DNA of 64,000 nt, taken from contig JADFYE010000006.1 of NCBI GenBank assembly GCA_015233195.1, forward strand, positions 6,699-70,698, given 5' to 3'. This DNA is from Candidatus Omnitrophota bacterium. GTDB lineage: Bacteria > Omnitrophota > Gorgyraeia > Zapsychrales > Zapsychraceae. A program made the translations under genes and the position numbers. The notes under the pieces are model-generated. The model was not told the origin of the DNA and ran no database searches. It saw only the letters and a program-made list of their open reading frames with translations. Shown here in pieces: positions 13,472-64,000 of the stretch; within the stretch, counting starts at the first letter, position 1; every line of letters starts with the position of its first letter.

Positions 13472-13568
13472 ATGAGCGCATAATTTACGGAACAAAGTGA
13501 ACGTAAGTTATTTGCGCGAATTTATCCTGAGCGAAGCCGAAGGATTACAATTTATAAAAAAGGTTTTT

Positions 13569-14444
13569 ATGTTAATCATAGTTTTAGTCATGATCTATAT
13601 CGCTGTTTTGACTTTTATCCTCGGGTGTTTTCCGCCGGAATGGGAAGAACGTCCGACGTTAAATGCTTTTGGCGAAGAGATTTATACCAGGAAACAGCGT
13701 AAAAGTTTTACGATTTTGACTTTGTTTGGGGTGATAAATAAACCGGTTTTGGAAATATTCGGCGACATAAAAAAACAATTAAATCGGGATCTGGCAGTAG
13801 CTCGCTTAGACCTGTCTCCTGAAGAATTCATGGTCGTACAAGAAGTAACCATTGGTGTATTATTAGTGGTGCTGCAGCCGATAGTTAAATCAGACATGGT
13901 CATATTTTATATTTGCGTTTCGCTCGCTGGAGGATATATGCTGCCCAGGATTTGGTTGAATGGAAAAATCCGAGCGGTTAAGAATGTGATTGTTAAAGAG
14001 CTGCCTGACGCCATTGACTTACTGGCGCTTTGCGTTAATGCCGGGTTAGATTTTATGCTGGCATTACGCTGGGTGGTCGAGAAATCCCCGCCGTCTTTAA
14101 TGATGACTGAGTTAAATAATCTTTTGCAGGAAATTAATATAGGTAAAACCCGCAGAGACGCGATTCGGGATTTGGCGTTTCGTTATCAGCTTCCTGATCT
14201 TTCGACTTTTTCACGTACGCTGATCCAAGCGGATAAAATGGGTACTTCGGTTACTGAGGCGTTGAATATTCTTTCTGAAGATATGCGTTTATCTCGTTTT
14301 CGACGCGGTGAACAAATGGCGTTAAAAGCTCCGATGAAAATGTTGATTCCGCTTTTATTATTTATCTTTCCAGTGGTAGGTATTTTAGTTGCTGGTCCCA
14401 TCCTTTTGGATTTTATAGAGAACAATCCGTTCAAAGCAATGTAA
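13569..14444 (+). CDS. tadC: TadC-like pilus platform protein (T2SS-F domain)
   Basis: ELPDAIDLLALCVNAGLDFMLALRWVVEKSP...IQADKMGTSVTEALNILSEDMRLSRFRRGEQMALKAPMKM matches the T2SSF consensus. ATG 13569 (AAAGG 6 nt upstream) gives an N-terminal TM like TadB. The track start GTG 13497 would read through a small hairpin (ATCCT..GCGAAGC..AGGAT, 13524-13545). Confidence 0.85.
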   Translation: MLIIVLVMIYIAVLTFILGCFPPEWEERPTLNAFGEEIYTRKQRKSFTILTLFGVINKPVLEIFGDIKKQLNRDLAVARLDLSPEEFMVVQEVTIGVLLVVLQPIVKSDMVIFYICVSLAGGYMLPRIWLNGKIRAVKNVIVKELPDAIDLLALCVNAGLDFMLALRWVVEKSPPSLMMTELNNLLQEINIGKTRRDAIRDLAFRYQLPDLSTFSRTLIQADKMGTSVTEALNILSEDMRLSRFRRGEQMALKAPMKMLIPLLLFIFPVVGILVAGPILLDFIENNPFKAM

Positions 14445-17359: not shown

Positions 17360-17387
17360 TTGCCAGACGCAATATATATGTTATACT
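17360..17387 (+). promoter_or_regulatory. Sigma70-like promoter candidate for the giant ORF (-35 TTGCCA, 16-nt spacer, extended -10 TGTTATACT)
   Basis: TTGCCA 17360-17365 and TATACT 17382-17387, preceded by TGT. It lies about 100 nt upstream of ATG 17485 and shares TGnTATACTTT with the flp promoter candidate. Confidence 0.3.
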
Positions 17388-17484
17388 TTCAGTGCGATTG
17401 ACGGAAAGTACTCGAATCGGACCTCGGGTTTGAGATGTTGTAGGCGATAAACATTGGTTTGTCGTCAACAGAGGTTGAAAAAAA

Positions 17485-20400
17485 ATGAAAAAAGCCACGG
17501 AAAAAGGACAATTAGGTTTGCCTGAGAGAGATAATTCTCAAAGTCTTCCTATAGAAGATTTGGGAAATATCTCTTTTAATCCTTCTGAGGTTGAACTTCC
17601 AGAGTTCACCGCAGCCGATGTTGACCGTTTAAATATCGATAACAGCCTTGCCAATGAAGATTTTGATCACACTGCGTTTTTAATCCCAACAGAACCGTCA
17701 TTTATCAGCCGTTTTAACCGTTGGTTGAAAGTTACAGCAGTAGCTGTGATTTGTACTTTTGTGCCTCAGCAGATCAGTTGGGCGTTCAATTATAATCCTT
17801 CAATAATTTGGCACAGTTTAGCTCCGGTAACAGCGCCGATGATGTCGCCTTTATCCGACGGGATATTGTCCGGCACAGAGCACACTCCTAACACTGATTT
17901 TGACGCTCTTGAAAAAATCGAGTACGGCAAACAAGTTGCCACTTATGTTTCAGGCGGGTTGAACCAGCTTTTAAAACAGTTAGTTGATAAAAAAGATACC
18001 CGCGTCAAATTACAGCTCCCAGCTTCGCACGATAAAACCAGCCAAAACACTTTTGTCCAAATTGACATTGCTGATCCTTTGAAGCAGAAAACTGTGGATA
18101 ACTTTGTGGATTGGTTGAAAAAGCCGGAAATTCACGCCTTAAACTGCGGGGTTTACGCTTTGCAGGATATTTTGAAATTGTCAGGTGTACAGCTTAATCC
18201 CGAGGAAATTTCAGTTGCTACTTTGAGTGTGGACATTTTGTATAAAGTTATAAAGCCGGCAGAACCGAAACTTAAGACGTCGTTGTTTGCAATGGATAAG
18301 ATCGCCCGGGGATATGGGTTGGAATATGTGCCGGTTAAGCTGGATAAAAAAGCTGACGTGGTTGGGGTTAAGCCGCCGTTTATTGCGCATTTCTCAGACG
18401 AACATTTCGTAACTGTTACGTCGATCAACAGCACTAAAGTTACTTATTTGGATATTGGTCGCGAAACCTCGGCGGATACAGTTAAATTCATCAGCAATTT
18501 GAGCGGGTTTATTTATGCTAAGTCGTCGGCGTTAGAAGGCATTAGAGCAGAGAAGATTTCGGAATCTTTATCAGCATACGTCTGGGGTTCGAAATGGAAA
18601 GATAAGTCGAATGAGCTGCCTGGTTTCATGAATGATTCCAGTGTTTTGATGTCGTTCTTGACTGATATTATTTCTTTAATAATTGCGGCAATGTCGGGCG
18701 GAGTTGGGGTTATTAATTGGTTGATCACTAAACTGGTATCTACCATGTTTCAAATTTGTGTGGCGCAGGGAGCTTGCGACGAGAAAACAGCTTTTATTTT
18801 ATCTGCAGCAATTTCAGCGTCTTTAACTGCCGGGGTTAGCGCGCAAGCGTCGAACGCCAGTATTGCTTCCGGCGGTGCAACCGCATCTAATTCAGCTTCA
18901 TTTTTGGGTGGTTTTGGGCAGAGCGCTGACGCGTTTGCTGGTTCAATGTCTGGTTTAAAAAGCATGTTCATGGGTATGCCTGGAGTAAGTGGAATGATGG
19001 GTTCACTTAGTTCGATTAACCCAATGAATTTATTTGGAGGAATGGGCGCTAGTGTTGTTGGCGGTACAGCAGCTCAGGCAGCAACTCAGTCAGTCGGGTT
19101 TGCTATGGCAAAAGGATTTTTCTCTGGATTAATAAAAGCGTTCGTACAGTGGGAAGTTAAAGAGGCAATTGCTCCTCAGCAAAAAGATAAAGATGGTAAC
19201 GCAGTAGCTGGAAAGAATGATTGGATCGCAGGATGTGTTTCCGGATTAGCTGCAACATTTGCTGGATTTGTGGTTGATACTGCGTTTGATGCTGGAGCTG
19301 GTATTTCAAATGCGTTTGCTAAGAATAGTCAGGCATTGATGTCGAGCATTTCCAAACAATTGATGATTTTTGGTCTTAGAGCAGTTTTGGATGCTGCAGG
19401 CGTGGATGGTAATTCTGCGGTATCGAGTTTGATAGGGGATACTTTGAGCAGTTTAATGGATTTGGCGCAGCAAGCAGCACAAGAACAACAGCAGGCTGAA
19501 GAACAAGCTCGGGCTGGACAGCAAGGCGGGCAACAGGGTGGACAAATCAAAGTTACGGATTATAATCCGACTACAAAACTTTATACAGTGGTATTTTCCG
19601 ACGGAACAACATCCCACATGACTGCAGATCAGCTTCAGGCAGCTGGAATTGATGTTGCGAAATTGCAAGCACAAATAGCGCAAGCTGGGACAGCGAAAAC
19701 CCAGGTGAAACAAGCACAAAATAAAGATTTGGCTGTAAAGAATGACCATGGCGCGCTTATTCAAAGCGTTGCTAAAAACGGCGATATTTATACTGTGGTA
19801 GTTGTGGGAAAAGAGACTCAGACCTTTACTGGAACAACAGCAGAATTGGACATAAAGTTTAAAGCAGCAGGACTAGTTATCCCGGTATTGACTGAAGGCG
19901 CAAAAGTAATTTTTGCAGATCAAGGATTTAAAGGTCAGACTGAAGGTTTTGAGGTTGGCGCAGACGGTAAGGTTGTAAAAGCTAACTTCTCTAATGGTAT
20001 GACGGCTAAAAATCTGGGCGCTGCTAACTCAGAGGTTTATTTAGATAAAGTTGGTTGGGATAATACAACTTTAAGTAAAGAGAATGCGGATAAATTAGCA
20101 ACAGCTTTTGGCTGGAATAATATTGTTGCTGTTGACGGAAAAAAAGGTTTAGATGCTGTAAATCTTACTTGGGGGAATGTTTTAACTGGCGCTGGAGCTG
20201 GTACAGTTTACGCTGGAAGCGATAAATCAAAAGCTTACGCGGTTGCGAGTTCAGGACAATATATTGCTGCGCTTACGAAGACGACAGACGATAATACTAC
20301 TCATTTTATGGCTAATGGAGAACCGTTATTTTATACATTTTCAGGCACACATTTACTTGGAATCGGTGACGCGTTTACTCCGCAAATGCCAAGTCAAAGA

Positions 20401-26400: not shown

Positions 26401-29400
26401 TTTGGTGCTTTTGATGGAGCAGTTGCTGGCATTGGCGCAAAAGTAAACGGCGCATCTTGGTCAGATGCTGGAAGCGCTGCAGCATCTGCTTTTGCGAATG
26501 GATTTATTTCAGGTGCTGCGCTTCATGGTGGAATACAATTCATGGGCGGCATGGCGAGCGGGTTTGTGGCTAAAGCTACAACAGAAGGTTCGTGGATCTC
26601 TAAAGCAGATAATTTTTTGGCAAGCAATCCTACATTGACAATGAGCGCTGGCGGTGGCGTGGTAAACGCTGGTCGTGGATTTATTGAAGCCTCATTAGAT
26701 AATAATAACAATTATGGTTTAAAACAAGCTGTTACTGATTTTGCTTTTGGCGCAGTAGCTGGAGCAGTTGCTGGCGGATTTGGTGCAAAATTTAGTGGAT
26801 TGGCAGAACGTCCGAGCATGTTTAGCGGATCTACTTGGGGAACGACTATTTATAGGGTTACTTCTTACACTGGTATAGGAACAGTTGGAAAAATTTTGGA
26901 TAACTATAGTGAGGGAAAAAGTATTTTAGATAATTTAGGTCGCTCAGTAGCTATTTCTGCAGGTTTAGGAATTTTAACCAATGCTTCGACTCATTGGATC
27001 GGTAATATTGCAGGCGGTGAAAAATTTACTAAATCTTTTGATTTGGCAGCTAAAGAAACTGCTCCTGTTGTTTCAGAGGTAAAAATAGCGGAAACTGGGG
27101 TTGCTGAAACAGGAACTGCTAAAACGGGAGAACTTTTAGTTCCAAAAGCTCCTCTTATAACAGAAGAACATAGTATTGCAGATGGAGTTACTTGGTTAGA
27201 TCGTAAGATAGGAAATGCTGAAAATATATGGAAACCCACCTGGAATTCTTTTGAGAAAAGCAGCCCAGGGATTGCTAAGTTTGTAGCAACAACAACACCT
27301 TCAGCAGGGTTAGGAGCAGCAGCAGGTTATGGTTTATCATTTGTTGATGGAAAAGATCGAGGAGGTTTGCTTAGTTCAGAAAGGTTGCATTGGGCTTTGC
27401 ATGGTGCAGTTATAGGTGCTGCTGGTAAATGGGCGTGGGGTCAAGAAACTTTGATGGGGTCTGGATTACAAAAAATTTCAAAAATAGGTATTGGTAGTGC
27501 TGCCGGCGGTTATGGCGGATATTTATTGTCGTATGCTGATCCTGATCTTAAAGGAAAAGGATTTGAAGCGCGGATAGGTCATATTTTATATGGGGCAGCT
27601 GCAGGCGGATTAATGAGTGGAATAACTATAGCTCGTCCGACATTAAACGCTTGGACTCATTCTCCGGAAAAAACTTTAGGAGAAATACTAAAAACTCCAG
27701 CATCTGTTTTGAGACCTACAGAAACTGGAATTAGTTTGTCTACTTTAGCGAGCAATCCAAATTTATTTACTAGGTTAGCAATTAGCGGGGCTACTGATTT
27801 TGCCGGAATTATGCCAGCGTGGGGAATGGTTGCTGTTCCTGCGCATGCCATAGCAGAATCTACAATAGGCGGCAGACCAGGTACAGCATGGGAAACTGCA
27901 TATGAAAGATTTAATCCCAAAATTGATCAGGCTGGAAATCGAGCTTCTTTAGATGCCGCATTTGTAAATCAAGTCGTGTCAGGCGCTAAAATGGGTTTAA
28001 CTATGGGACCGATGTTAGCTGTCGCGCAAATGCCTTTATCTTCTTTAACATCTACAAATACCGGTGTTCTTGGCAACGCTTTAAATTTAACACATTCTAT
28101 GCCAGCTACAATTGGATGGTTAAGCGCTGTAGAAGTTGGCACTTCAGAATTTTTAAAAGCACAACCGTTGTATTCAGATACCATGAACGGTACGCCGGAA
28201 GAAATATTAAAAAAACGTGGGTTTGTAGCGCCGAATGCTGACGGTACTGGCGGTACTAAATCTTATGGAATAGCTTTAAAAGAATTGAATGCTCAGCGCG
28301 CAATTGATTCACAAGAGATAGCTACAAGATCACAAAAAGTTGCGTTTTATAGTTTACTGGTTAAACCTGTAGGAAAATTGACGCCGCAAGAGATGATAGA
28401 TGTTCAAAGTAAAAAAGCATTTGATAATGTTTTCTATAATGGAAAATCCGGTCGTTCTATGGACGCAAAAGATTGGGCGAAGTTAGAAAGCGATGCGGCA
28501 GACTCGTCAAATCCAGCAGTTCAAGCAAAGGCAGTTAAAGCGTTGTTACCTATGGCGCAGGCTGGTTTAAATCCTATGGCTGATGCAGCAACTCAGCAAT
28601 CAGCGCGTGAAAAAGTTGATAGTTTATTGAATACTCCGGGAGGACAGCGTTACCAGGCTGAGGAAATAGCTCAACCTAGAGGAAAAGAAACAGTTGAACA
28701 GGCTGTAACAAGATTAGAAGTAAGCACAGATAAAGCTGACCGTGAAAAAGCTTTTGATGCCAGAATGGCTTTAGGAAGAGCCGACGGATTACAAGGAACA
28801 GCAGATGTTGATAACACACATTTTAACGCTGCTAGGAAATTAATTGCTGGGTTGATTTCAGGAAATAACGGTAAAGTATCCTCAGATTTTGTCCGACTGT
28901 CAGAATTAGAGACTAGGTTAGGACAATACAATGATGCAGCGAAATCGACTAGGATTGCTATAGAAATTGATGGAAATAGTATAGCGGCAAGAGCAGCACA
29001 TTTAAATGCTTTATTAAATTTAAAATTACAAAACGCTTCAGGCAATAAAGAAGTATCAGACCCTGGTTCTGTGGAGATAAATAAAGCATCTAGGGAGTTG
29101 AGTGCGGCATATGCAAAAGCAAACATGAAAGAAGCGGCTGGTGATATTTTGTTGCAAGCTGCTGTTCGTGATGCTCGGCAAGGTGGAATAGAATCGTTAA
29201 GTTTGTTACGAGAATCTATTGATATGCATATTACAGCAGACAAAATGTTAATGATGCATGATTTGCAAAAACAAGCAGGTGTGGAGCCAAAATACAAAAT
29301 CGAAGAAATACGTAATAGAGCTGAGAGGGAAAATAATACTGAAATTTTAAATAAACTAAAGGTGAGAGATTTACAAAAAGAGATTGATAGAGAATGGGTT

Positions 29401-32400
29401 AAAGGTGAGGCTCGAAAGCACGATGTATTAATTAGTAATTTAGAAGCTTTAATTAGACTTAGACCGACTGCTGAAAATTATTTATATTTGGCACAAGCAA
29501 AAGCAGTTAGAGGCGACGCTATAGACGTCATTCAGGATGCAATTAGACAAGCAGAACAAAGAGTTACGCCGAATTCTGATACAGCTGAACATATTGGAAA
29601 AATTAAAGAAGCGCTTCAAACAACTGCAGACATTGAAGCTCTTGAAGTGAAACATAGTAATGCTGCAGACGCAGCCAAAGAAAAAATAAGTCGAGACTTA
29701 GAACAAAAGAAAGTTGATTTGTTAACATTATTAACGGCTGCAAAAAATAGCCGAACTGAGGCAGCAGATAAACCAAACCCATTAGAAGATTTGCAGCCCC
29801 CTAAACCAGCTGGTGAACGAATGGCTGAGCCGCCAAATACAGAAGCTTCGCATGCTACTGATAGTGTTAAGACTCCGGAACCCCAAGCTCCTCCGGCTGA
29901 ACAAGCAGAAGTTAAGCCTAAAGATACTAGCATGTTTTCTGCAGCAACACCTACTGCTCGACGAGGACTGGTTTTTGATGCTATCCGCGGTGAACGTATT
30001 ATTGAAAAAGAAACAGTACCATTAACTGATCGGGAACGGGCAATGGGGGATTTAGTTAAAGATTTTGCATTGCGTATCTTAAACTCTTCTAAGGATGCGG
30101 TTGGTAATGTTTATGAGGCTTCTCATACGGATGTAAAGGAATTAGCAAAAAAGAATCCTAACCAATTAGGAGATATGACGGCAGAAGAACGTGATCGAGT
30201 TATTGATACAGCTAAAAAAATTGCAACGATAATGACTGAGAATAAAAAGTTTTTCCCTGTGCTTGAATATGGTTTACCAAAAAGTTTTGTTAAGGAAGTG
30301 GTGGATGACATATTAAAGAAGGCTGGTATCGAGACATCTAAAATGTCGGATGAACAAAAAATAGATGAAGCATTTAAAGAAATTAAAAAGATTTTTGCTT
30401 CCGGCGATCAGGCAAGAATTGATGAATTGAAAGCCGCAGACGTTAGTATAAATAAGGCTAATGGGGAAGTTTCTATTAAAGGAGACCGTACCCAAGCTGT
30501 AACAGTTTTGACCGATCTTTATATGGCTTTTGAAAAAGCCTTTTTAGCATCTCAAGATGGAAAAACTTTCAGGTTTGTTTCCAGCGCTGGTTTGGGTGCA
30601 GGTAAAACTTTGGCGATGATGGCTATTGCACGGGAAATTATAAATGAGCATCCAGAAGTGCAAATCATTTTGGTTATGCCGCAAAATAAAGTTACGGAAA
30701 TTAGAACTGGAATTGACGCCTTAAAAACTAATAAAGCTAATGCAGTAGCTGTGTTGTTGGGACATCAACTAGGAGAGAACCTGGATTTTTCACATTTGGC
30801 TTTTACGGAAAGGGAAAATAATCAAATAGTAATAAAGGATTATTACGGTAATACTTTAACAGATCTTAAAGGCAGGATTATAGTTTCTTCTGATTCTGAC
30901 GCTTTAACTATAGCTCGAGAAAATCCAGATTTGATTAAACAGTCTTTTGTTCATATTGGTGAGATCGACCAATTTTTACGTGCTCATCCTTTGATAACTG
31001 GATCTGGTCGCTCTGGTGAACAAATTGTGGAATTAGCTTTTAAAGGCAATCGTGATTGCCAGGAGACACTAAGAATAGCAACAGCAGATTCAAAAGAGCT
31101 TACGCTCGTTTATGATGCTCTGATGGGTGTAATTGCAGATGCGGGTGGAAATATCCGGGGTAATATTGTTAATATTCGTGAAAAAAATATTACATTAAGC
31201 ACTGTAGAAGGTGCAGATGGTGAATCAGCTAAAACTCGCTTTGATGCAGCATTAGAAAAGTTAATTAAGGATGGCTTGATTCATGCATCATGGCGCGGAG
31301 AAGAATCAGAAAGTAAACTTTTGAATTCTATTTTAAGATTGGTTTTACAGCGGGGTACACCAGATCAAGTTAAAGAAGATAACGAGCAAGGTTATACTTT
31401 ATTAGATAGGTTAAACGCGCTTAAACAAAAAAACACTGTTCCGTCAGATTCTTTGGAAGCGCGCATTCGTCTAATTGAAATAGCAAGAGCTAATAATGAA
31501 CCTGTTAAGCCGGCTCAGTATATTAATGCTTTACTGCAAGGAAAGGAAAAACCAACTTATTCTGCAGATTTGATCCGTTTGGCAAAAGGGGTTTTCGGTG
31601 ATACTGGAACTGCTAAATCAGCTAGATTGCAATTTGATACACTAGGAGTTCATGTTAAAGAAGCAGAAATAGAACATGATTTGACATTGCATGCGAGTCA
31701 GTTACGTATTTCTAATTATAGTTCAGTATTTGAAATTCATAATGAACAAGTAAAAGCAGTTGTCAATGAGTTGGTCCAACAAGGAAGAATTAAAATTGAG
31801 GAAATGGGGTCATTAGTTACAGCATTAAATCGATTAACTTCAGGTGATTATGCTGGAGGTCGCGCTACATTGATGTCTGTGACAGCCCGTGAGTTAGAAA
31901 TTTTTAAAATGATTGTAGAAGAGAATGGTGGAAAATTACAGAGGGATTTTCTAGATGCGGATGGGAAAGTTATTGGAGCAATGGATATTCCATGTATGTT
32001 TGTCGGAGAAGCTAAAGAGGGCGGCGAAGATATTGTAGAAAAGAAGGCAGCAGAGGATAAGATGGAAGAGTTGCAGGGATTAAATAATAGAGATCATGTA
32101 AACATCTTTTATATTGGTTTAACTGCAGGATCAAATATTGCTGAAATTAAAGTAGAAGGGACTGATTTAAAAGTTAATATTTTACGTGCGAACGCGATTG
32201 AAAAAGCAGAACTTGGGCAATTATTCGGACGGGTTGATTTATTAGAAGTTGGTAATGGTCGTTTAGGCGCTAATCGGGTTGAGGCTTGGATTAATGTGGG
32301 AAGTGATGCTAATGTTACTGATCAGGAATTAGAGCGCGCGCAAGAAATTATGAAAATGCCGGCAGTGTCTTTGGCTAGGCTTGAAGCTGAAAGAAAATTA

Positions 32401-47400: not shown

Positions 47401-50400
47401 AATAATTTTATAGTTAAGGTTATAGCTGGAAAAATATTTAATATGGTTACCGGGGCAGCACTGGAATCGTATGGATTTACAACAGACTTAAAACAGATCA
47501 AGTCGAGATTTGTGACAGAGGAGACAATAGGAGAGCAGATTGTCGAAATTATTACGCCTCGAATAGCTAAGATCTATGCTGCCCTGGCTCACCGCAGATT
47601 TAATGATTTTAAAATTACCCCATCGGATTCAACCAGTAATTTGTTGCAGTTGTATCCGTTTACTAAAGGGAATAAGAATTATTCCGGAGCGTTGGCAGAC
47701 GTCGCTGTCTCTAAGAAAACAATACCAACAGTTGTATTGGAATATCAACGCTTAATGGAAACAACCGGATATTCTGATAAGGGATATCAATCTATTAAAG
47801 GGCAATTAGAAAATTATTGGAGAGAGTATGAGTCTGTATCTACCGAAAGCACCAAGCGAGATATTTTACAGAAGATGGCAGCTGTTATCCGTAATTTTGA
47901 GAATGGGGCAACTAAATATTCAAACGTAGAAGCTGCTCCAGTGAAGCATTATTTGTTGCCAAATGATTCACGCGGTCGTGATTTAGCCCGCGCATATCCA
48001 AATGGTGATGTTGCTGTAGATATGTGGTGGTTAGAGGGGGATAACGTTATTGTTAAGAATGGCATTTACGAGGAAGTTTTAGAACAATTTGGTATTTTAC
48101 CGGGTTCGTTCGTGGTAAATAATTCCGGCAAGTTAGCTAGCGCGTCGTTATTAAAAGAAGATACAACAGTAAGCGCCATAAATCCTGCAGGCGATTGGTC
48201 AGTTTTTAAAGGACACCAATATCATGTATTAGATTCTAATATTAAGAAGAGCAATATTTATACGGTCGGCGGTATGTTGGTTGCGGAAAAATTTGACCAT
48301 GTAATTCTTCGGGTTGCGAAGGAAATTTTCGGGGTAGCGACTAATGGGGAAGAGTTAATTACATATGACGCGTTCGGTCCTAAGCCGATGCCATTATTCG
48401 GAACCATGATCACGGATGATAAAACTGTGACGTTGAATAACGGACAGGAAGATAATCGTTCGAGATTGACTATGGTTCAGTTGGATCAAAAATATACTTA
48501 TGATCGGAAGAATGTTGCGATAGGTGAAGGTAAAAAAATCGAAGCGGTTGGTTTAGGGCCACACTTAAAACAAGTTATGGGTACAAAAACCGAGGGTGAA
48601 AAAGTTTTATCGGAGAGCCGCGAAAATATTTGGGGCGAATGGGGAGAGACACTTACAAATAGTTTTAAAGCAGCAGCTCCGTATTTGGAATGGATCACGA
48701 TTGGTTTAATTTTGATGAATTTCATACTGCCTATTGTTGGTTTATTATTCCAGCGTAAACGAAGTAAAAGTTTAATTGAAAAAGTTTATGATAAAACAAT
48801 CGGGAAATTTTATGGTTGGTATTATTCAGGGTTTAATAAATATCGCAGTGAAAATCCATACGTTGAAGCGTATCGTATTTGGCTTGATCTTACTGGTAGA
48901 AAAGATTCTTGGACGAATGAGCTTGATATAGAGCAGGCTTTTGAAAAAATTTACAGAATGGCTAATCGGCTTAAAGATGCCTCGGATTTTATTAATTATT
49001 TAATGTTTTTATCGCGTACGAACAACAATGTAAAGATAGAAGACCACATTAAATTAATGGATGATTTGATCTCCGCAAATCAACAATTCGCTAAAATTAA
49101 CGGAGATCTTAGTGTTTCATATTGGGTAACATATGATGACATTAATAAAATGTTCCGGACTAAAGAATTTTTAAGAAGATATGAACAGTATGGTATTGAG
49201 GCTTATAGAACTTATGTTAACGCATTGAACCAGCGAGAAACTATCGGACAACTTCAAGCAAGTAAACTCACAGTTCAAGAGCTTAAAATTCTTCATTTGA
49301 AGACTGATTCGCAGGCTGCTTTAGACATAGCTAAAAAATATGGTGTAAGCGTTCAGAATGAAAGCTTGCTTTGGAAGGTTTATTATTCTCCCATCGGCGG
49401 AGCTTTCGCGGTTAAAGGGTTTATTGGGGTACTGGGCGTTTTATTCAAACAAGCCGCGATTTTCCCAGTAATGTTATTAGTGCTTTTATCTGTTTATATC
49501 TCAATGCCAACAGCAGTGATCATTATTTTTACCGTAGGTGGCGGGATAGGAACAATATTATTTATTTTGAACGCTCTTACCAAGAATCAAGACCGATTAA
49601 AGACACCAGCTTTAATTGTTCGTGTCTGGGGCAGAATTTTTAATGGATTTACTTTATCATTAGCTGCTTTGTACTCAGCCGGATTATATGTAGGAGTTGC
49701 CGGTACCGTCGGAGCATATACAGCAGTTTTTGTGGGGTTACTGGGTATATTGCTTGGAAGTTATGCGCTGATTGATAAATATACGTCGGTTAAATTCAAT
49801 GCTCCGACCGATGATGAAGGACATGCTCCTTTACGGGATTGGAAATGGTTTAAAGAAATACAAATTTCTACTTTTATGGTGGTCACCAGTTTTGCCGCAA
49901 AATTTGTTTGGAACTTATGGATGTTTAAATGGCTATTGAAATCTGCTGCACTTGTTGCCGGCGGCACGTATGTATTACCCACTTCGATATTGCTTTTGTG
50001 GGGAGTATACGCAGTGATTTACTATGTATTAAGAGCTGGGAAAGCAAAAAAATTATGGCATACAGAAGCATTTTTAAACGCATTGTTTTTCTTGGGGTTA
50101 GCTGTTGGTTTATGGCAACTCGGTGCAGTGGTTTTAACCGGGTTGATGCTCTATCCATTTGTGATGTTCTTTTTGGTAGATACATTTTTCTTTTTCTATG
50201 TGTTGGAAGCATTACTTGGTTTTATCTATGGCAGATTTTTAGGATTAGGAACGATCACTTCTTGGCCGACGGTTAGAATCTTTAAATATATGGTTAAAGC
50301 GCAATTTAAGAATAAATTTATACCTAAAAAATTAGGTTTTAGTGAACAAGTTAAGGAACAAATCTGGCGTGAATTTTTAGTTGATGAAATGAAAACTTTA

Positions 50401-53400
50401 GCTAAGGAAGATCGATTGACTGAAGAAGAATATAATCGTTTTACAAATGATGATTTCAGCAAAGCCCCTCGAAATGAAGACGCGAAAGATCGGTTGATTT
50501 GGTTTTTCAATTCTTTATTAATGCAAATGCCTGAAGGGGCGCCTAAATGGGAATCAATACGAGCGCATGCGGTGGTATTACCCGCCAATAATGAAGATGT
50601 TCTTTATAGTAAAAAACAAGCAAATGAATTAGCTCGTATTGATGGTTCATTGGAAGATACCGGAGTAACATTCTTGAATTATATTATTCATAATATGCCG
50701 GATGAATTTGATAATTTTATTAATCGTATGTATAGAGAAGGATATAGCAGTGTTGAAATTGCCATCTTACGTCGTCATTATGATTTAGTGGTTAAGAATG
50801 GTGAGCTTAATCATAGTTTAGAGGGAATAGATAATGATAAATTATGGTTAGAGATCCGTCTCTGGCTTTCGATGAGATTTCAACCTTTGATCAGAACTAT
50901 TAGAGGTTTAGAGTATCGTAGAGAAGCCTTGAGATTTAAAGCTAAACATATTTATTTTAGGGGACAAGAAAAAACAGATGCAGAGATTGATGATTTGGTT
51001 GATGGAAAATTTGGAATTGTCGTAGGTTATCAAACTTATAAAGATAAAGAAAGCGAAGCTATAAAAGGAAATGATGTTGCTAAATCTACGGTTGAAGGAA
51101 TTAGAGAAATTATGAAACAGTTCCCGAGGATTAAAGTTCCATATGTAGTTACAGATGAAGATACTAAAGTTGTTTCGACTGTATGTATGCAGAATAATAA
51201 GGAAATCGGCAGGGAAATATTGTTACGTCATTTCTGGGTCAATGCAACTATTTGTGCCGGAAAACCTGAGCATCAAAAAGTTTTGTCAATGTGGGTTGAT
51301 CCTAAATATGATTATGTTGATACTTTGGATATGAATCAGGATGATTATTTTGAAGAAGCGTTTAAACACGATTTGGTGTTGGAAGAGCATCGTCCAGGAG
51401 TGGCTATTGTTGGTTTACCAGAAAGAATCTTTACTGATAAATTTAATAAACACGCGAAATTTTATGCGGATTCAGAATCTACTTTTTCAAGTACTATTCA
51501 ACGGGATTCAGCGTTAGGCGGAACCCGGTTCCATTATGGGCATCCAGATTCATTTGATCGTAGATTCGCCATATCTATGGGATGGACTTCTATTTCTTCT
51601 AAATTAAATGAAGATATTTTTGCAGGTTATCGCAGCGTGTTAAGAGGTAGACGTATCATAATGGTTGAATACCGCAGAGTGGGTAAAGCTAGAGAGGTTA
51701 GATTCCCGACGGTAGTTGGTTTGTTCCAAAAATTTGGTCGCGGGGCTGGTCAGCAAGCGCGGGATTTGATGTTGAAGGAATTAATGGCCAGCCGCAATTT
51801 CGGATTTATTAAAGGTATGTCGTTTGTTTTAGGCGCTATTGGATATTATATTCGTAAACCTTTTGTAGTTATGGCAATACGCGGATATTTATTTTTATTG
51901 GTCTTCCTTGGCGTCAGCGGGTTTGCGGGTTTTCCTAATGAGGCGTTGTTAGGGTTTGCCGGTTTGGTTGCATCTCAGGGTATTGTAACTACCGGGTTGG
52001 TGAATGGGATCTTACGTAAAGGATTTTTTGTGGGAACTTGGGATTTGATTAAAACCATGTTCCGGGGGAATGTTTTATCTTTCATGGGACATATTTATAC
52101 CAATGCGGTTGGTTTTAAAGAAGCACAAAATGGAATTAGTACATATATCGGTACTGGTCGCGGGCCAGTACTATATCATATTCCATTATTCCATAAAGAT
52201 ACGTCTAAGAGTTTATATGATGGATTTTTATATGGAAAACAAATGACGATGCAGGTGGTCGGTGATATGGTTTTGATTTTAGTAGCAATTAAAATATGGA
52301 TGAGTATTCCGATGGCTTGGTCGGCATTATTTATGTTAATTCCTTTTGCCGCGTATTTTTATCCGGTTTTATCTAATGCCGGAGCATTGATGGGAGATGG
52401 GACTGATTATAATAAATCAATGAAGATTTTATCGGAAGATATTTCGTTATGGAAAGAAAGAATGAAAGTGCGGTTTAATGGGCAAACTAAGCAAGATGAA
52501 AAAATTGGGTTTGTTGAAAGTTTGGAAATATTTATTCACGGCGTTATTTTATTCTCGGCAATATATATTATAAATCAAATTTTAAGGGTTCTTTATTGGG
52601 TTTGTGGGGCAGCTACATTTTCCGGAAAACTAAAAAATGCGGTTGTAGTACGCAACATTCATTCTTCTTCTGTGTTTTCTTTCGCGCAAACTATTGAAGA
52701 CCCGTTTGTTAAAAGTCAGTTATTGCGTAGAGGGGAAGCTATATCAATTTTGGAAGGATATTTAGTAGGCTCAAGTGTAGTAGCTTGTTATAACTGTGCT
52801 AAAGAGCAGATTCAATATAACCTTTCTCAAGAGCAAGTTTTTGATATATTAAGTCAGTCAGGATTTTCTAACGATGAAATCGTAGATGTTTGGTTTTTTA
52901 TTGAAGAACATGAAACTCTGCATAGTCAATTTCCCAATTTGAATGATGAACAGGATATTTTAACGCTTCAAATACAACCTCAATCTCAGAAAAAAACTAA
53001 CACTTTTGATCTGCTTACTAGAGAACAGGCAGCAGCTGTATTCCAGGAAAAATTCGATCGTATGAAAAAGAATGGAGACGCTGCATTATTACAAATATCT
53101 TTTGCTAGAAGAGGGACAAGAGATTCGCGGGCGAGCAGGGTAGAACAAAGAATGAAAACTAGTGTGTGCCGCGTTAATGGTATAGAAGGAATAGAAAAAG
53201 AAATTAATATTCCAGTTGTGCCGGAATTTAATAAGGAAAAGATAGCTGCTGACGAGATAGCTGCAGCTGAAGACATGCAGGTGAATGGTAAAGTAACCCC
53301 ATTATTATTAATGGGCGGGGCGATGACCAGAATGATAAGTTCGATTGTAGGGTTAAGCCGGAGATTTTTACATAAAGTTGAAAGTTTATGCGAATTTGAG

Positions 53401-56400: not shown

Positions 56401-59400
56401 GATGAAACAAATACTAATATAACCATCGCAGTTGAAAAAGGTGAATTGAATAAAACTCGGGCAGAAGCTATCGTGGATATTTGGAGCGGTACCAATATGC
56501 AGGCTATGGCTCCTCCGGAGGATGATCAACAACCTGGTTTTACGGTTATAGTTACCTCGGATTTTTCCAAAACTAAAAATTCTGTCGCCGCGTATAACAA
56601 ACGTACCAACACTCTTTATATCCACGTATTTCTCGTCGATAAATTAGTAGAAGCAAAACTAGGAAACCGCAAGCTTCAATATAGATTTTTCTCTAATTTT
56701 ATCCGCGGTGTACTACAAGCTCATGAAAGAATTCATATTTTAGGTCTGGATGAAGACCAGGCTCGTCCGATTACTTTAGCTATGCTGGATTATTATTCTG
56801 ATATTCGTTTTGCTTGGCAGCAGGTATTGGTGACTGATCCTGACTTTTATGAAGTGGAAGCTGATGCGGATTTTGAAAGTGATCTGAAGGAAGCTTTAAA
56901 TAATTTTCAAACCATTAAACAGGGGCAAAAGGTAATAATCTCATTAACCGTGGCTGGTGTGAATTTGTTATCTACTTCCGCTGTTGGTTTTAATTCGTCA
57001 ATCGCAGATGAAAAAACTGACAGCGGAAGACCTGTTTATAAACCTGCTTCTTTACCTGAACCTACTCGTTTGTTTAAATTTGTAACATGGATAAGAAGGT
57101 TTATTATGCCGTTTATTACAGTACTTCTTCTTTCGGCATTTTTTTGTAGCGGCTGCTCGACTATAAATAATAATATCGCTATCAGCTCCTTGAAAAAAAT
57201 TACTATCGCGTTACCGGAAATTGCTGATCCTTCAGGAGTAGAAGTGTTTGATTTTAATCCGTATATGATCATACCTGCCGAAGATCGGGAAGAGGTTAAA
57301 GAAAATCAAATCGCTATATTAGGAAAAAATGGGGAAGCGCAAAGTTCTCCGCTTTATTTGGATCAGTGTACTGCGGTTTTATTTATAGACATTGACGGTA
57401 ATGCGAGTATCGCGCATATTCTCCCGTGGGACGCGCTCACGCCTTATGTGCGCAGATATAAAACTACTGAAGACCATAAAGTCACCTTAAAAAATCTTAC
57501 TTCTCTTCTCAAGAAATATAAATTTGATACCCGCAATATGGCGGTATATCCGTTTTGTGCCGGTAATCCGGATAAAGATTTGGAAGCAGCGTTAAGGGAA
57601 ACTTTTGGCGCTCAAAATGTGAATAACAGTATAACTCCTCTGAATCAGGCTTGGGTTAAGGTTGATTATAATGCTAACCGGAAAATCGGGCATGTAACTT
57701 TTGATACTACAGCCAAAGATCAAGAACGAAAATTTGTTATAGATGGCAGCACGTTGTGGATAAAAATTTTGCCATACACTTCTGTACCTGTGGATAGTTT
57801 AATGTTTACAGAGAACATGCAAAAAAATTCGCCGATGCAGGCAGCAGTAGGTATGCCGGTTGGTTTTATGGTAGGAGCTTTAGGCGCGTTTAGACGCCGC
57901 ACCATTCGTACTACTGCGCGTTTAGGCGGGATCCTTTTTTTGTTAGGCGCTATTTTACTTTCCGGATGTTCCGGTGAAAGAAAAGAAGCAGCTGCACAGT
58001 CAAGTGCTATACAAACTCAGACTTTAATAATTCCTAATAAAGAAGAATTTTTGCCGGAATTATTGCCGAATTATAAGCCTGATCCTCGAGAAATAGTGTT
58101 TGAAATTAAATCTAACGAATCAAAGGCAGAGCAAGAACTTAAGGCTAAAGGCTATCCTGTTCCTGTACGTAAGATTTCAAAACCGACCAGTAGTAAACGT
58201 TCTGATTTATCAGAAAATTATAAATTGCTTAGCGTTAATCAGCAGGTTCGTTTCAGCAAAGAAAATAACAGTTTTAGAGCTAGAGCGTTATCCGGAAGAT
58301 CAGCAGTTATAATTGGTATTGACGGGAAAGACAATGGTTTTATTTCGCATATATCCACCTCAAATTTGACTCAACCTAATAAGAATTTAACAGTTCCCCA
58401 CTTAATAGTCCAGGCACACGCAGAAGCGTCAGTTAAAGCTTTACATTCATTTGCTGTTAAACAGAATATTGATTTATCGGCGTTGACAGTTTATTCAATT
58501 ACGCCAGACGGCGGATATCAAAATGATGTATTAGAGAACGCGCTTAAAAATCAGTTTGCAGAAAGTACAGTTTTGCCTACGTATTTTTTTGGTCGCGACC
58601 AGGTTGAAGTTGATTTTGATTTTTTGAAAAAGACCGGGCATATAGTTACGGATAAAGAAGGACCTTTAGCTGGTGCAGATATTCCATCCGGGATGATGTT
58701 TGGCGCGTCTATTTTTTTGTTGTCGAGGAGAAAGCGGTTTCATTTTGCGCAGATATTGAAAAGGGTAAGAAAATTCGCAGAAGTTACTGGTCTTTCAGCA
58801 GTATTATCACTGGCTGGAGTTGTTCAAGCTAAGAGCGATAAAAAGGTGCCAGCGCCGGGATTAAATTATTATTTGCCTGAGCCTTCGATTATAAATACGC
58901 CGGCTCCTAAAATAAATTATTATCTGCCTAAAACAGCGGAAACTACTACCGCTTCAGCTGCGACAAAATATGAGTTTAAAGACGGGTCATTGGTGCCGGT
59001 AAATGACGGTAAGCCTTATGAAGTTGGATTTCGCCAGGTGGTATTTTTTGATCAAGCCAGGTCAGAACTAAAAACTGATAAAGTTATTTTTACAGTAGCA
59101 GCTGTAATTATCGGAGTAGATGCGCAGGGTCATGGGTTTATGGCGCATGTTTCAATTCCTGATTTTTACAAAAAAGATTTATCTACCGACGATGTTGTAA
59201 ATGAATGGGATAGCGCGGTAAAAGCTATTCAAGAAGAAGTTTTAGAGGATAAACATAATATAGATCCTAAAACATTAATCGTGTTTTCTTTTGCCGCAGG
59301 TGAAGCCAACGATATTTTACCCGCTATATTGAGACGATATTTTGACGAAGAGCCTTTCACCAGTTTAAGTAAGAATAATAGGGAAGTAGCTGCGAAAACC

Positions 59401-62400
59401 ATCTTTTTTCCTTCGAAATATATTCAGGGCGTTTTTGATCCCGTGTTAACACGGGTAAAAATTAATACTGATAAAAAAGGCGCGGAACAACAGCGTAATT
59501 TCACTATAGATCCTGTAAAAGCTACGATTCGTCTTGAACGAGGTAACGATTCTTTAAAATTTTCTGATTCCCAGATAAACGAAGAGGAACCGCATGACTT
59601 TGCCGCTACCGTGGATAAGAAAGAATTAAGCCCGCAGGAAATTCTCTCCGTCGAAGAAATTGTGAGCGAGCAGGAAAGCACGTTTGAAAATTTTGAAATA
59701 GTTGAAGATATGTTTATTGACCTAGCCGGAGAAGTTTTAAAACGTTTAGGGTTTGAAGGTACGACTGCAGAATGGTTAAAAGCTAAACAGAATAAAAAGA
59801 TCCGCTGGGGGTCTGAAGATTTGTTCGACCGGTTTGCTATTAAAGGAATACGTTTAGCAGCGTTTAACCGTAAGGATACAGGATGGATAATTCTTAATCG
59901 TTCGTATCATGTTGCTCCGATATATGAGACGGCATATTTAGCTGGTATCATTGCACACGAAGCTGGCGCGCTTGCCGGAAAATCACATAAAGAAAATGTG
60001 TGGCTGCAAAGGACAGTTGAACGGGCAGTGTCTCCTGATAATAGAAAAGTTATTTCGTCTTTAAGAGTGGCAGTGTCTTTGCGGGATATCGGCGCTGAAG
60101 CAGGAGCTTATGCGGAAAATATTAATAAGATCAGACGAGCTTTGCCGGTTTTAGCAACACAGGGAGTAGGTTGCGTTGGTTTATCCGAAGAGTTTTACGA
60201 GAATGGTTCAGTTTCCCAAAATAGTCAAAGCGAGTTCGCACTGTTTAAACGTACTGCTAATGAGCTTAATATAAGCATTATTGCTACAGCTGATCAAGCG
60301 GCGCGTTATGATACAGGTTTTTTACATGCTTATGCTAAAGTTATGCGGGGAGAAAGTTCAATAGTGAATTTATTTCAAACTTTGGTTTTTGCGGTACAGG
60401 TCACATCTTTTTATAAGGTTTTTTCTTTTATTGATAATGATTTGTCTTTATCAAATATCAATGGGAAGCATCAAACTTTTCTAACTATGTTAATTGGTTT
60501 AGCCCAAACAGGTATGAACGTTATGCTTGGGTTTCAAGATTGGATGAATCATGAAGATCAGGACGCTTCTGATTTTGAGCAATTTGTCGACGAATTTCAG
60601 AACGACCGGGAGTATATGTCGCGCAGAGGATTAATAGATATTGATACAGTTGACGCGCTTAAAGGGGAGTTGGTTGAATTTTCGTCTAGGTATATTGGCA
60701 TATATTTTTATACTGATTTATTGCCGGAGCATGATTCGGTTAATCGGCAACCTCAGGTATTAGTTATCCTGGATACGCAGCAGGAAGAAGCTGGTACTAT
60801 GGCTTGGTTTAGGGCGCCGCGGGAAATGGAAGATCAGCATAAGCAAGTTAATAAAAATATGAGATTAAAATTATTTATAGGTAATGGCGGGAAGATAGTT
60901 GATGGAATATATGGAATCCCACACAATATGGCAGATCAGGCGGTTGAATATTTGGATTTTAATGATGTTGAATGGGCTAATAAATTATTTGAGCTTTACG
61001 AAAAAACTTTTAAGTTTATGGGGGAAATCGGAGCAGCTTTTTGGGGAAAAACATTGTTACGGGTTTATCATTGTATTCCTAAAGGACCAGAGGGTAACAA
61101 TCATCGGGCAAAATTTAAAGAATGGTTTTTATTTTTAAATGAAGATTTGCCTGCTCAAGCAAAGGATAGTCATTATTATGAATTATTAGGCATAGTTGAT
61201 CCGGATGAGGAGCTTTCTGTAGAGGTTGATATAAATGCTGAGGAAACGCGTCATTCTACTCTGGATGTAGTATTAAATATTCCAAGTGATGTTGAGCTAA
61301 TAACTACGCCGATTGATTTAGGCACAATAGTATTTTCTGGCAAAGATTTCTTTATGGGCAGCGATTATCGTCAATTAATTATTGCGCATATAAATAGATT
61401 GAAGAATATGTTAACGCTGGCAGTTTATTATATGCCACATTTCACGAGCACAGAAGATGGTCCATCTGTATTGGTTTTCAACGTTATAATAGAACCTGCT
61501 CAGATCGGCATGCCGTCTGCCTGGTATGTTCCTGAGACTAGGACCATACATTTACAAGCAGTATTATTGTCGGAACAGGTTTCGTTAGAAGCCGCTTATT
61601 ATTCCGCGCATCAGGTTTTTGATTTATATGGTTTTTATGGATGCGACGAGGAATCTGCTCGAATAGGAAGCCAGGTTTATCTTGATGAAATGGTTACTTA
61701 TGAAACATTCTTTTCAGCCTCTTTAGAGGATAGTGGGAATGTTGATGAACCTTATGATGCTCAGTTCCATAGATTAATTCAAAAATTACATAACTTGAAT
61801 ACTTTAGCAGAGATTGGTCAAAAGGATGAAAATTATTATACCGAAGGAACAGCAATATTAATTGCAGCAAAAAGAATTTTATTGGGTATGGACTTTGAAG
61901 AAGAAAACAATTTTCTGTTTAAAAGCCTTTTGGATAAAGAAGAGATGCGTTTTAACGCTTTAAGAGCAGGCATTGTAAAACCAGTTGAATATATAGAGCG
62001 AAAAATGCAGAGGACCGTGCCTGATTTGTGGAGACACGTTCCGGGTAATGGTTTGGTTATTGAGAAGGTATCTAAGCACATATTGTCTTTAGCTATAGTA
62101 ATGTTTGAAGGCGGGATATATTGGGCGAAGATTTCAGACGGTAGTGGTTGGGAGGATACAATAAATATGAATCAAGCCAGAGTTCTGGATTATTTAAAAA
62201 AACATAATGTTTCTGACGTGAGAGCGGTTGATTTTATTTATTCTAAAGGTCAATATATTATTTTATTAGAAGAACTGTCAAAAGGTAAAGAGTGGGATCC
62301 TAAAAAAAGTATAAGTTTTGCAGAGGCTTTAGACCGCGTTATAAAAATGGCGCAATTAGTAGGCGAATTAATTAGACATGGTATATGTCATTGGGATTTA

Positions 62401-64000: not shown

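Follow-up and report, generated by a model that had tools for sequence, protein, structure and literature searches.

A stretch of 64,000 nt from contig JADFYE010000006.1 (39.6% GC, without N; hereafter ‘the window’) contains a reading frame of 15,505 codons that is still open where the window ends. This 46.5-kb frame is the start of a genuine protein-coding gene. Very probably, it is the 5'-complete, 3'-truncated start of an Omnitrophota giant gene of at least 15,505 codons, from the class that has a peptidase C39 head and lies directly 3' of a cluster resembling Tad and type II secretion systems (T2SS), with a non-repetitive, multi-pass membrane mosaic that includes an FKS-type unit as its product. 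As read from the sequence, the mosaic would consist, in this order, of the head, a Gly/Ala/Ser-rich linker, ~7,400 domain-poor amino acids (aa), transmembrane (TM) helices, the FKS-type unit, further TM helices, a kinase-like region and a degenerate P-loop. The coordinates of all features are given in Table 1.

The original prediction had claimed a single open reading frame (ORF) of at least 46.5 kb, starting at ATG 17485 after a TGA and a GAGG motif. This was reproduced: frame 1 contains zero stops from 17479 to 64000 (46,522 nt), and an in-frame TGA at 17476-17478 precedes the ATG. The runner-up among stop-free stretches in any of the six frames of the window was 5.2 kb long. Within the region of the giant ORF, the remaining five frames have 19-129 stops per 3 kb. 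It had also been stated that the ORF was missing from the ORF track for want of a stop, with only short ORFs listed in its place. Both statements agree with our results, as the giant ORF was unlisted because the ORF listing drops frames that run off the sequence, and the region otherwise holds only two antisense ORFs of at least 150 aa. At the base composition of the window, which gives a stop probability of 7.2% per codon, the chance of 15,505 stop-free codons is ~1e-503.

The coding character of the frame was evident along its whole length. GC content at the three codon positions followed the order GC1 > GC2 > GC3 in 15 of 15 three-kb windows, and codon usage correlated with that of the upstream genes at r = 0.93, compared to 0.32 for an off-frame control. 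A codon log-likelihood model trained solely on seven neighbouring genes (4,323 codons) ranked the frame of the ORF first among the six in each of 51 consecutive 900-nt windows. Along the window, base composition and GC skew stay even, and the amino-acid composition of the giant protein is ordinary. We take ATG 17485 as the start codon because the homologs in two other loci (L004 and L012, see below) align from residue 1. The promoter-like site upstream of it has 10 of 12 consensus matches and an extended -10 TG; such sites are not more frequent in the region than expected from shuffled sequence. Recoding or an alternative genetic code was considered and rejected, since the neighbouring genes end in TAA, TAG and TGA, in line with what had been claimed from the sequence.

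The head of the giant protein shows a defined order of elements: an N-terminal tail of ~80 aa, a TM helix, the C39 domain, a WG-x-KW-x-D-x-S-x-x-LPG motif and two to three hydrophobic helices. An invariant P-x-Q-I-S-W-A-F motif closes the first TM helix in the head alignments. The C39 domain was matched by Pfam PF03412 with 27.3 bits (cut-off 22, E 3.5e-6), and the same model matched 37 of 37 aligned head homologs, with a best E of 9.4e-13. Cys221, His307 and Asp323 are invariant in these 37 sequences. A profile of the head matches the double-glycine protease LahT (6MPZ) with catalytic Cys and His aligned, such that Cys221 (LNCG) and His307 (EHFV) pair with LECG and NHFV of LahT. Judged by these profile and residue matches, the head is a C39-family domain. 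It shares the papain-like type, the aligned catalytic Cys/His and the conserved Asp with the C39 domains of peptidase-containing ATP-binding cassette transporters (PCATs), such as LahT and ComA. In PCATs, however, C39 is fused to an ATP-binding cassette (ABC) transporter, whereas in the giant protein it sits between TM helices at the protein start. No ABC transporter domain was detected by Pfam in the giant protein or its neighbours, and the C39 head is thus not a PCAT. PCAT C39 domains are cytoplasmic, whereas that of the giant may face outwards according to the positive-inside rule.

Relatives of the gene were encountered through its upstream neighbours. On the contigs that carry homologs of the upstream T2SSF proteins (49-62% identical), the ORF after the T2SSF pair matches the N-terminus of the giant at 35% identity over its first ~450 aa; past that point, similarity to these first-found downstream ORFs vanishes. 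A pattern search with the head alignment, covering one genome per GTDB species, revealed 40 head-bearing loci in GTDB genomes, the best with 65% identity and the others with 31-39%. The order p421, p1733-like protein, T2SSF, T2SSF, head is found in nearly all loci with upstream DNA. The closest relative, L004, originates from the Candidatus Omnitrophota metagenome-assembled genome (MAG) nDJH6bin5 (JADFYJ010000023.1) and is 65% identical over aa 1-451. In total, 23 of the 40 loci are titled Candidatus Omnitrophota, Omnitrophica, Omnitrophus, Zapsychrus exili or Aceula lacicola, of which the last two belong to the phylum Omnitrophota in the NCBI taxonomy. Another 16 carry the title ‘uncultured Planctomycetales’ (third party annotation (TPA) co-assembly MAGs) and one ‘uncultured bacterium’; no other phylum appears in the titles. 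The title ‘uncultured Planctomycetales’ probably does not reflect the real phylum of those 16 MAGs. Protein homology and synteny, the only grounds for the assignment, point to Omnitrophota as the phylum of the window.

The Planctomycetales-titled loci (L005, L014-L019, L021, L026, L028-L031, L034, L035 and L043) have the same Omnitrophota-type head and Tad-like locus. In L004 (9920-12238), the ORF ends after 773 codons, ~600 nt short of the contig end. In L003 (8566-16882) and L041 (about 10001-11250), which have long-read-style contig names, the head-bearing gene is split into consecutive ORFs in shifted frames, likely due to indel errors or pseudogenisation.

These shifted frames in two relatives demonstrate that errors occur in such data, and they are the observation that speaks for an artefact of assembly or sequencing in the window itself, either a chimeric join or consensus errors that mask stops and frameshifts. 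Errors of this kind break frames and do not produce a run of 15,505 codons free of stops at 39.6% GC. Composition, GC3 and codon usage are uniform, with each 900-nt window best in one and the same frame, and the region holds no repeats able to seed a mis-join: long direct, inverted or dispersed DNA repeats were not found, and Tandem Repeats Finder reported one 41-nt tandem array. Furthermore, the modules of the head, a hydrophobic island and the synthase cassette (both described below) are co-linear in independent assemblies, and for 35 of the 40 loci the fetched DNA likewise runs out, after as many as ~3,900 codons, before the head ORF has closed. An artefact is accordingly highly improbable.

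Great length, association with the membrane or surface and a nearby secretion system are also features of giant repeat-type adhesins (RTX, Bap, LapA, SiiE) and of those Omnitrophota giants that are classed as the tandem-repeat scaffold or dockerin type, and the gene could in principle be one of these. The repeat content of the protein argues against it. Self-blastp revealed a single weak internal duplicated pair in 15,505 aa (E 3e-8), and there is only the 41-nt array at the DNA level. No Pfam repeat family reached its threshold, the nearest being one NHL-like match with E 0.011, and Pfam gave no dockerin, TSP3, Ig-like, cadherin or RTX match over the whole protein. We therefore consider a repeat-type adhesin or scaffold very unlikely. 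When a bacterial gene exceeds 10 kb, a non-ribosomal peptide synthetase (NRPS) or polyketide synthase (PKS) is usually the explanation. Apart from its size, nothing in the gene resembles such a megasynthase: whole-protein Pfam at E <= 1 detected no condensation, adenylation, PP-binding, ketosynthase or acyltransferase domain, and in place of modular repetition there are multiple TM helices as well as a glucan synthase of glycosyltransferase family 48 (GT48). The chance that it is a megasynthase is practically negligible. For the part of the gene inside the window, the repeat-type adhesin, the NRPS/PKS and the assembly chimera were thus all rejected on repeat, Pfam and coding-frame evidence.

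Outside the head, a GT48 domain lies within the FKS/callose-synthase-type unit (aa ~10,430-11,715). Pfam Glucan_synthase (PF02364) matched within aa 10,995-11,476 with 211.7 bits (cut-off 37.2, E 2.5e-62), and phmmer aligned aa 10,883-11,475 to Fks1/Gsc2 in the PDB (E 1e-24). TM-like helices flank the domain on both sides, at aa 10,404-10,911 and 11,460-11,700. For the accessory domain, a two-iteration profile of bacterial homologs (aa 10,430-10,720) matches the Pfam FKS1_dom1 of genuine FKS and callose synthases, and in the C-terminal bundle YIGTGRGP aligns to YISTGRGF of Gsc2. Judged from these alignments, the unit reproduces the full Fks1 core of accessory domain, GT domain and TM bundle. 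To compare single residues, the unit was aligned to Gsc2 (Fks1 numbering is +19), with the key residues taken from PMC10499315 and PMC12715860. In yeast Fks1, the catalytic and UDP-Glc-binding residues are E851, K1082, D1102/N1104, H1195, N1220-E1221-D1222 and K1246/R1248 (PMC10499315, PMC12715860). Kept in the window are E851 (E11037), K1082 (K11260), the DAN motif D1102/N1104 (D11282/N11284, here DMN), an identical HYGHPD (at 11350), N1220-E1221-D1222 (N11375-E-D11377) and K1246/R1248 (K11401/R11403).

The unit therefore has the same architecture as the eukaryotic GT48 enzymes, i.e. fungal Fks1/Gsc2 and plant callose synthases, with an FKS1_dom1-like domain, TM helices, a GT-A-type GT48 domain and a C-terminal TM bundle, and it shares with them the DAN-type, NED (‘ED’), HYGHPD, GK-x-R and TGRG motifs. 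In contrast to these enzymes, to which it is only 23-28% identical, it is buried in a far larger bacterial polypeptide and belongs to a separate, mostly Omnitrophota sequence set; regulation of the Rho1 type is not expected. Searched exhaustively with HMMER, aa 10,600-11,799 retrieved 786 representatives at E <= 1e-3. The best relative is 44% identical and the next dozen (at least 1,000 aa) 34-39%, and the best relatives lie deep inside large proteins of 2,300-7,886 aa. Ranks 1-44 are not eukaryote-like, while 44 of the best 150 of the 786 matches are. Among 20 top matches looked up, 12 had a taxon name: nine were proteins of Candidatus Omnitrophota MAGs, mostly ‘partial’, two were from Patescibacteria or Parcubacteria and one from a ‘bacterium’. 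These bacterial relatives surfaced only in the exhaustive search; a word-indexed search with the GT48 region returned only two eukaryotic matches, a plant callose synthase (28%) and a yeast FKS (23%).

Similarity to the large relatives extends beyond the synthase itself. In several large proteins it is co-linear across aa ~9,600-11,715 of the giant, and proteins P0040-P0083 also carry the GT48 cassette. RKY39097.1 and MFH1317989.1 are among its stand-alone homologs. The ~780 aa before the synthase are 22-25% identical (E 1e-45 to 6e-22) to P0071, P0076, P0080, P0104 and P0120, all co-linear and GT48-bearing. Pfam detected no domain apart from the synthase in P0071 and P0076, leaving the pre-synthase region unannotated; this region could be a conserved domain that partners the bacterial GT48 cassette. 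The structural literature treats GT48 as a family of fungal and plant enzymes. Neither of two studies of Omnitrophota giants, West-Roberts et al. 2023 (bioRxiv 10.1101/2023.11.21.568195) and Nielsen and Lui 2026 (bioRxiv 10.64898/2026.06.07.730766), mentions glucan synthase, PF02364 or GT48, and a full-text literature search joining Omnitrophota with ‘glucan synthase’ gave one paper, by its title and abstract a salt-lake microbiome survey.

The combination of a protease head with a synthase unit raises the question of how the product works. C39 enzymes cut after Gly-Gly. The translated chain could thus be a polyprotein, cut by the C39 head or other proteases at Gly-Gly into ordinary-sized proteins such as a glucan synthase, a kinase and surface proteins. 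This alternative departs from the explanation given above only in the product's mode of working. It is consistent with the intact, invariant catalytic triad, with the specificity of the family to which the LahT match points, and with the several GG dipeptides past the head, including the QQGGQQGGQ (aa 681-686) that ends the linker. In addition, the GT48 cassette occurs in proteins of 2,300-4,500 aa, some with their own Met and signal-like N-terminus, and since these are much shorter, it can work outside a giant. The same possibility was raised by West-Roberts et al. (bioRxiv 10.1101/2023.11.21.568195). On the other hand, the Gly-Gly sites are candidates only, and chance alone gives GG dipeptides in a Gly-rich linker. 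Reanalysed proteomics of the giant protein of Velamenicoccus archaeovorus does not resolve processing (bioRxiv 10.1101/2023.11.21.568195). We regard a polyprotein as possible, although a single membrane-spanning product appears the likelier form.

Outside the head and the synthase, ~90% of the giant protein has no detectable homolog or annotation. The original prediction had described recognisable domains in the same frame along the length of the ORF. Such domains do occur, namely the C39, GT48, kinase-like and P-loop-like regions (18145-18453, 50131-51909, 62167-62631 and 63403-63705), but they are very sparse, and these four Pfam-detectable regions make up ~5% of the 15,505 aa. Whole-protein Pfam at E <= 1 adds only sub-threshold NHL, ResIII, tudor-like and Tox-MPTase3 matches, and phmmer against all PDB sequences gave no match for aa 1 to ~9,800. 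The ~7,400 aa after the linker are without a recognisable domain, except for one hydrophobic island and a sub-threshold helicase-like P-loop. In four distant Omnitrophota giants (L007, L036, L018, L009) the island is found equally far from the head. It is the only conserved stretch past the head in the first 8,000 aa and is probably membrane-embedded. The helicase-like P-loop matched Pfam ResIII with E 0.007 (16.8 bits, cut-off 22.5) and the DEAD-box protein 1HV8 with E 0.16, and on this resemblance it could be a divergent form of the SecA_DEAD-type motor of the giant-gene class.

Strong hydrophobic helices are located at aa 83-101, 392-410, 8,102-8,445, 10,404-11,700 (dense) and 13,150-13,495. 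With a strict hydropathy threshold (Kyte-Doolittle mean >= 1.9), 13 segments were counted, compared to 6.1 +/- 2.0 in shuffles; they concentrate at aa 10,404-11,700, for which TM helices are predicted from the Fks1 homology. A low threshold gave 31 segments against ~20 in shuffled sequence; it was judged uninformative, and the strict one was used instead. Towards the end of the visible sequence, the kinase-like region matched Pfam Pkinase near aa 14,900-15,000 with E 4e-4 (20.3 bits, cut-off 31.7) and the TTK kinase in the PDB with E 8e-4. In the PRK-like P-loop that follows, Walker A is degenerate (GVSCCGETT, Lys replaced by Glu), and the site is probably inactive or altered in function, judging from this substitution. 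The last 1,005 aa had no homolog at E <= 1e-5 among the 8,000 short-word-sharing candidates of a word-indexed search that covered 5.8 billion protein clusters. An exact search with 70 nt from the window edge matched nothing in GTDB genomes or JGI metagenomes, and three complete neighbouring proteins had no identical entry on record.

Upstream of the giant gene, the window encodes a Tad/T2SS-like cluster. The best NCBIfam match of its ATPase is the TadA family, with 335.8 bits under the cut-off of 373. Nine ORFs of 81-421 aa begin with a G/A-Q-x-x-x-E-Y/F/L prepilin motif, such as KGQNTAEYAIL or RGQSTLEYAIL. By their translations, the cluster encodes an unusually large pilin-like set, including two very large members of 421 and 1733 aa (p421 and p1733). 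Neither of these has a Pfam or NCBIfam match. For p1733, identity is 42% over the full length in L004 and ~27-38% over the N-terminal ~210-290 aa in most loci with upstream DNA, and its position between the pilins and T2SSF is conserved in Omnitrophota giant-gene loci. Between the T2SSF pair and the giant gene lies a 717-aa protein, divergent from the giant gene across an 852-nt spacer (16633-17484). Its N-terminal 480 aa are unannotated; NCBIfam models of carbohydrate and chitin-disaccharide deacetylases match below their cut-offs, and there is a partial 43% match in L004. Separately, an 85-aa ORF with a TTG start (1454-1711, forward strand), between the ATPase and the next gene, resembles by eye the small DUF192-type proteins beside T2SSF in L047.

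The TadA/CpaF-like ATPase, the TadB/TadC-like T2SSF pair and the Flp/TadE-like pilins are shared with Tad (type IVc pilus) systems. A secretin, RcpC and a prepilin peptidase, present in ordinary Tad loci, were not seen in the first 17 kb of the window, and unlike ordinary Tad loci the cluster includes the large pilin-headed 421- and 1733-aa proteins. In this clade, the Tad-like locus is always followed by a giant gene, whereas ordinary Tad loci are without one. Indeed, more distant T2SSF homologs with 32-35% identity (L044, L045, L046, L047 and a JGI 3300072015 contig), which served as a negative control, are not followed by a giant gene. They lie either beside FHA-domain proteins or in Tad loci of the conventional make-up (prepilin peptidase, RcpC, secretin and fused ParA-T2SSE ATPase).

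Table 1. Coordinates of the giant gene, its recognisable regions and the neighbouring genes in the window
Feature	Position (nt)	Strand	Basis or remark
TadA/CpaF-type secretion ATPase (T2SSE)	109..1356	+	Pfam T2SSE E 1.4e-61; first cluster gene in window
Six consecutive pilin-like ORFs, 86-137 aa, G-Q-x-x-x-E-Y prepilin (class III signal peptide) motif	3483..5626	+	translation and motif search
421-aa protein (p421), pilin-like N-terminus KKGQVVLEL	5637..6902	+	tblastn 24-42% in many Omnitrophota loci
81-aa pilin-like ORF, NGQITLEF	6899..7144	+	translation and motif search
1733-aa protein (p1733) without assigned function, pilin-like hydrophobic N-terminus KKGQVAIILLLV	7148..12349	+	tblastn conservation
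87-aa pilin-like ORF, RAQSISEI	12333..12596	+	translation and motif search
T2SSF/TadB-like inner-membrane platform protein 1	12620..13471	+	Pfam T2SSF E 1.5e-19; 86% identity in L004, 45-65% elsewhere in Omnitrophota
T2SSF/TadC-like inner-membrane platform protein 2	13497..14444	+	Pfam T2SSF E 4.2e-14; 79% identity in L004, 48-63% full length elsewhere
717-aa protein, C-terminal YdjC-family carbohydrate deacetylase	14479..16632	-	Pfam YdjC E 3.5e-37
Promoter-like TTGCCA-16 nt-TG-TATACT	17360..17387	+	~100 nt 5' of start codon; consensus match only
Shine-Dalgarno-like GAGG	17471..17474	+	10 nt 5' of the giant ORF's ATG
Giant ORF, 15,505 codons, non-repetitive	17485..64000	+	5'-complete, 3'-truncated by window
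Conserved head, aa 1-460	17485..18864	+	alignments; present at 40 GTDB loci
First predicted TM helix, aa 83-101	17731..17787	+	hydropathy; basic stretch SRFNRWLK just before
Peptidase C39 (double-glycine cysteine protease), aa 221-323	18145..18453	+	Pfam PF03412
Gly/Ala/Ser-rich low-complexity linker, aa ~430-690	18772..19554	+	32% G+A+S
Ala/Gly-rich hydrophobic island, aa 3346-3645	27520..28419	+	tblastn 28-31% identity to L007, L036, L018, L009
SF2-helicase-like P-loop, aa ~4343-4426, Walker A SSAGLGAGKTLAMMA at aa ~4,368	30511..30762	+	below significance
Two strong TM-like helices, aa 8102-8120 and 8427-8445	41788..42819	+	hydropathy
Region of unrecognised fold before synthase, aa ~9618-10400 (~780 aa)	46336..48684	+	blastp
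FKS1_dom1-like accessory domain and following TM helices, aa ~10430-10720	48772..49644	+	faint Pfam FKS1_dom1, E 0.12
GT48 domain, aa 10883-11475	50131..51909	+	Pfam Glucan_synthase PF02364
C-terminal TM bundle, aa ~11460-11715, YIGTGRGP motif	51862..52629	+	hydropathy; homologs align to aa ~11,715
TM-like helix cluster, aa 13150-13495	56932..57969	+	hydropathy
Sole internal duplication, two ~125-aa domains (aa 13,606-13,726 / 13,872-13,999, 29% identical), no assigned fold	58300..59481	+	self-blastp
Protein-kinase-like region, aa 14895-15049, HWDLKTFN and DFD motifs	62167..62631	+	sub-threshold Pfam
P-loop NTPase-like region (uridine kinase/PRK-like), aa 15,307-15,407	63403..63705	+	Pfam PRK E 3e-4, 21.0 bits (cut-off 22); AAA_18 E 0.04

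The giant genes described for Omnitrophota encode products that reach 85,804 aa (West-Roberts et al. 2023, bioRxiv 10.1101/2023.11.21.568195). They have ahead of them a secretion system containing gspD/E/F homologs and small class III signal-peptide genes (bioRxiv 10.1101/2023.11.21.568195), and published traits of the proteins are an N-terminal C39 (or S8) peptidase near a signal or TM helix and many TM helices (bioRxiv 10.1101/2023.11.21.568195; bioRxiv 10.64898/2026.06.07.730766). Nielsen and Lui (2026, bioRxiv 10.64898/2026.06.07.730766) counted 3,650 proteins of at least 10,000 aa in their own samples, with a maximum of 147,155 aa, and their clustering of in-house and NCBI proteins covered 5,761. 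In that study, singletons make up 80% of the sequence clusters, PF03412 defines a 24-protein architecture cluster, T2SS or pilus genes flank 13 of the 14 largest giants, and contig ends systematically truncate the long ORFs of MAGs. A protein of at least 10,000 aa was found in 93.8% of 176 complete Omnitrophota genomes (bioRxiv 10.64898/2026.06.07.730766), so the original statement that proteins of this size are extremely rare in bacteria is true generally and does not extend to Omnitrophota.

The window gene shares with the C39-headed giants the phylum (by homology), a length of more than 10,000 codons, the N-terminal C39 by a TM or signal-like helix and multiple TM helices. It also shares mostly unannotated unique sequence, a gspE/gspF-type cluster upstream and truncation by the end of the DNA. 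With 15,505 codons visible, it passes the long-protein threshold of at least 10,000 codons used by Nielsen and Lui; the ‘giant’ threshold of West-Roberts et al. is 30,000 aa, above the 15,505 codons visible in the window. The GT48 FKS-type unit is a domain type unmentioned for C39-headed giants in either study. Because giant genes have already been described for Omnitrophota, tiny bacteria that depend on a host, the window gene is a further example of this known class and not a new kind. The ~39,000-aa ‘Archaeovorin’ of V. archaeovorus LiM is the only giant with proteomic evidence of expression (bioRxiv 10.1101/2023.11.21.568195, citing Kizina et al. 2022). Compared by description only, this protein of a cultured episymbiont or predator is, like the window protein, giant, TM-containing and multi-enzyme. 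Of the ‘Archaeovorin’ subtype's domains, the window protein shares only a peptidase (C39) and a glycosyltransferase, the latter from another family (GT48), and no glycosyl hydrolases, which are also on the ‘Archaeovorin’ list, were detected by Pfam in the visible part. Among the loci that the head pattern search retrieved from GTDB genomes, none bears the title Velamenicoccus; this does not prove that it is absent.

Several observations weigh against parts of this interpretation. With regard to the phylum, the window contains no rRNA, tRNA or marker gene, as tRNA and Rfam scans found nothing. With regard to the class, SecA_DEAD, reported for ‘most’ giants and often C-terminal, was not detected by Pfam at E <= 1 in the visible 15.5 kaa (thousand aa), and Pfam found no HEAT, GT1, GT5, methyltransferase or NUDIX domain of the ‘Archaeovorin’ set in the same part. 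The hydropathy evidence for TM helices outside the synthase unit exceeds the shuffled expectation by a modest margin only. Structure prediction was of no help, as AlphaFold2 without alignment gave a mean pLDDT (predicted local distance difference test) of 32.1 for aa 700-1,300 and 33.3 for aa 14,821-15,440, both unusable. Finally, three substrate-binding positions of Fks1 are changed in the synthase unit (D1080 to A, N1085 to H and Y849 to N), and the donor sugar or the activity may therefore differ.

Taken at face value, the domain order suggests how the product might operate. The giant gene would be translated as one polypeptide and inserted in the cytoplasmic membrane. With the inner membrane as anchor, the TM helices would split it into blocks that lie by turns in the cytoplasm and at the cell surface, because the GT48, accessory, kinase-like and P-loop regions are expected to be cytoplasmic. 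By homology with Fks1, the GT48 and accessory domains would face the cytoplasm and the surrounding helices would form a polysaccharide channel, such that the synthase unit could polymerise beta-glucan from UDP-glucose and use its own TM channel to extrude the polymer. The kinase-like region and the P-loop would lie on the cytoplasmic side as well. Since the C39 triad is invariant, the head may cut the giant polypeptide or partner proteins at Gly-Gly sites, for which the GG dipeptides after the head are candidates. The strict linkage to the Tad-like cluster suggests a joint function in surface display, secretion or attachment, and the GT48 unit together with the divergent YdjC-family deacetylase indicates carbohydrate chemistry at the cell surface. 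The giant protein and the adjacent Tad-like machinery would thus form a cell-surface apparatus for host or prey contact and carbohydrate processing. This agrees with the role in host or prey interaction that the literature proposes for Omnitrophota giant proteins.

The window gene adds one giant to the thousands catalogued, and it illustrates that simple ORF tracks and fragmented assemblies hide such genes. The ~450-aa C39 head with the upstream T2SSF pair provides a compact, specific marker for giant-gene starts. Sequence divergence is extreme, as nothing beyond the head, one hydrophobic island and the synthase cassette can be recognised from one relative to another. The GT48 unit points to polysaccharide synthesis, beyond degradation, at the predator-prey or symbiont-host interface, and it bears on the source of eukaryotic beta-1,3-glucan synthase. 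We tentatively hypothesize, as a possibility that we consider less probable than its opposite, that the FKS-type unit here and in other large Omnitrophota proteins is a working processive beta-glucan synthase, and that some Omnitrophota build and extrude a eukaryote-type beta-1,3-glucan or related polymer at the site of contact with host or prey. If true, the polymer could serve as a tether, sheath or plug, beyond mere degradation of the partner's wall. There would then also be a deep bacterial branch of GT48, and a prokaryotic origin of the eukaryotic Fks1 and callose synthases would become testable.

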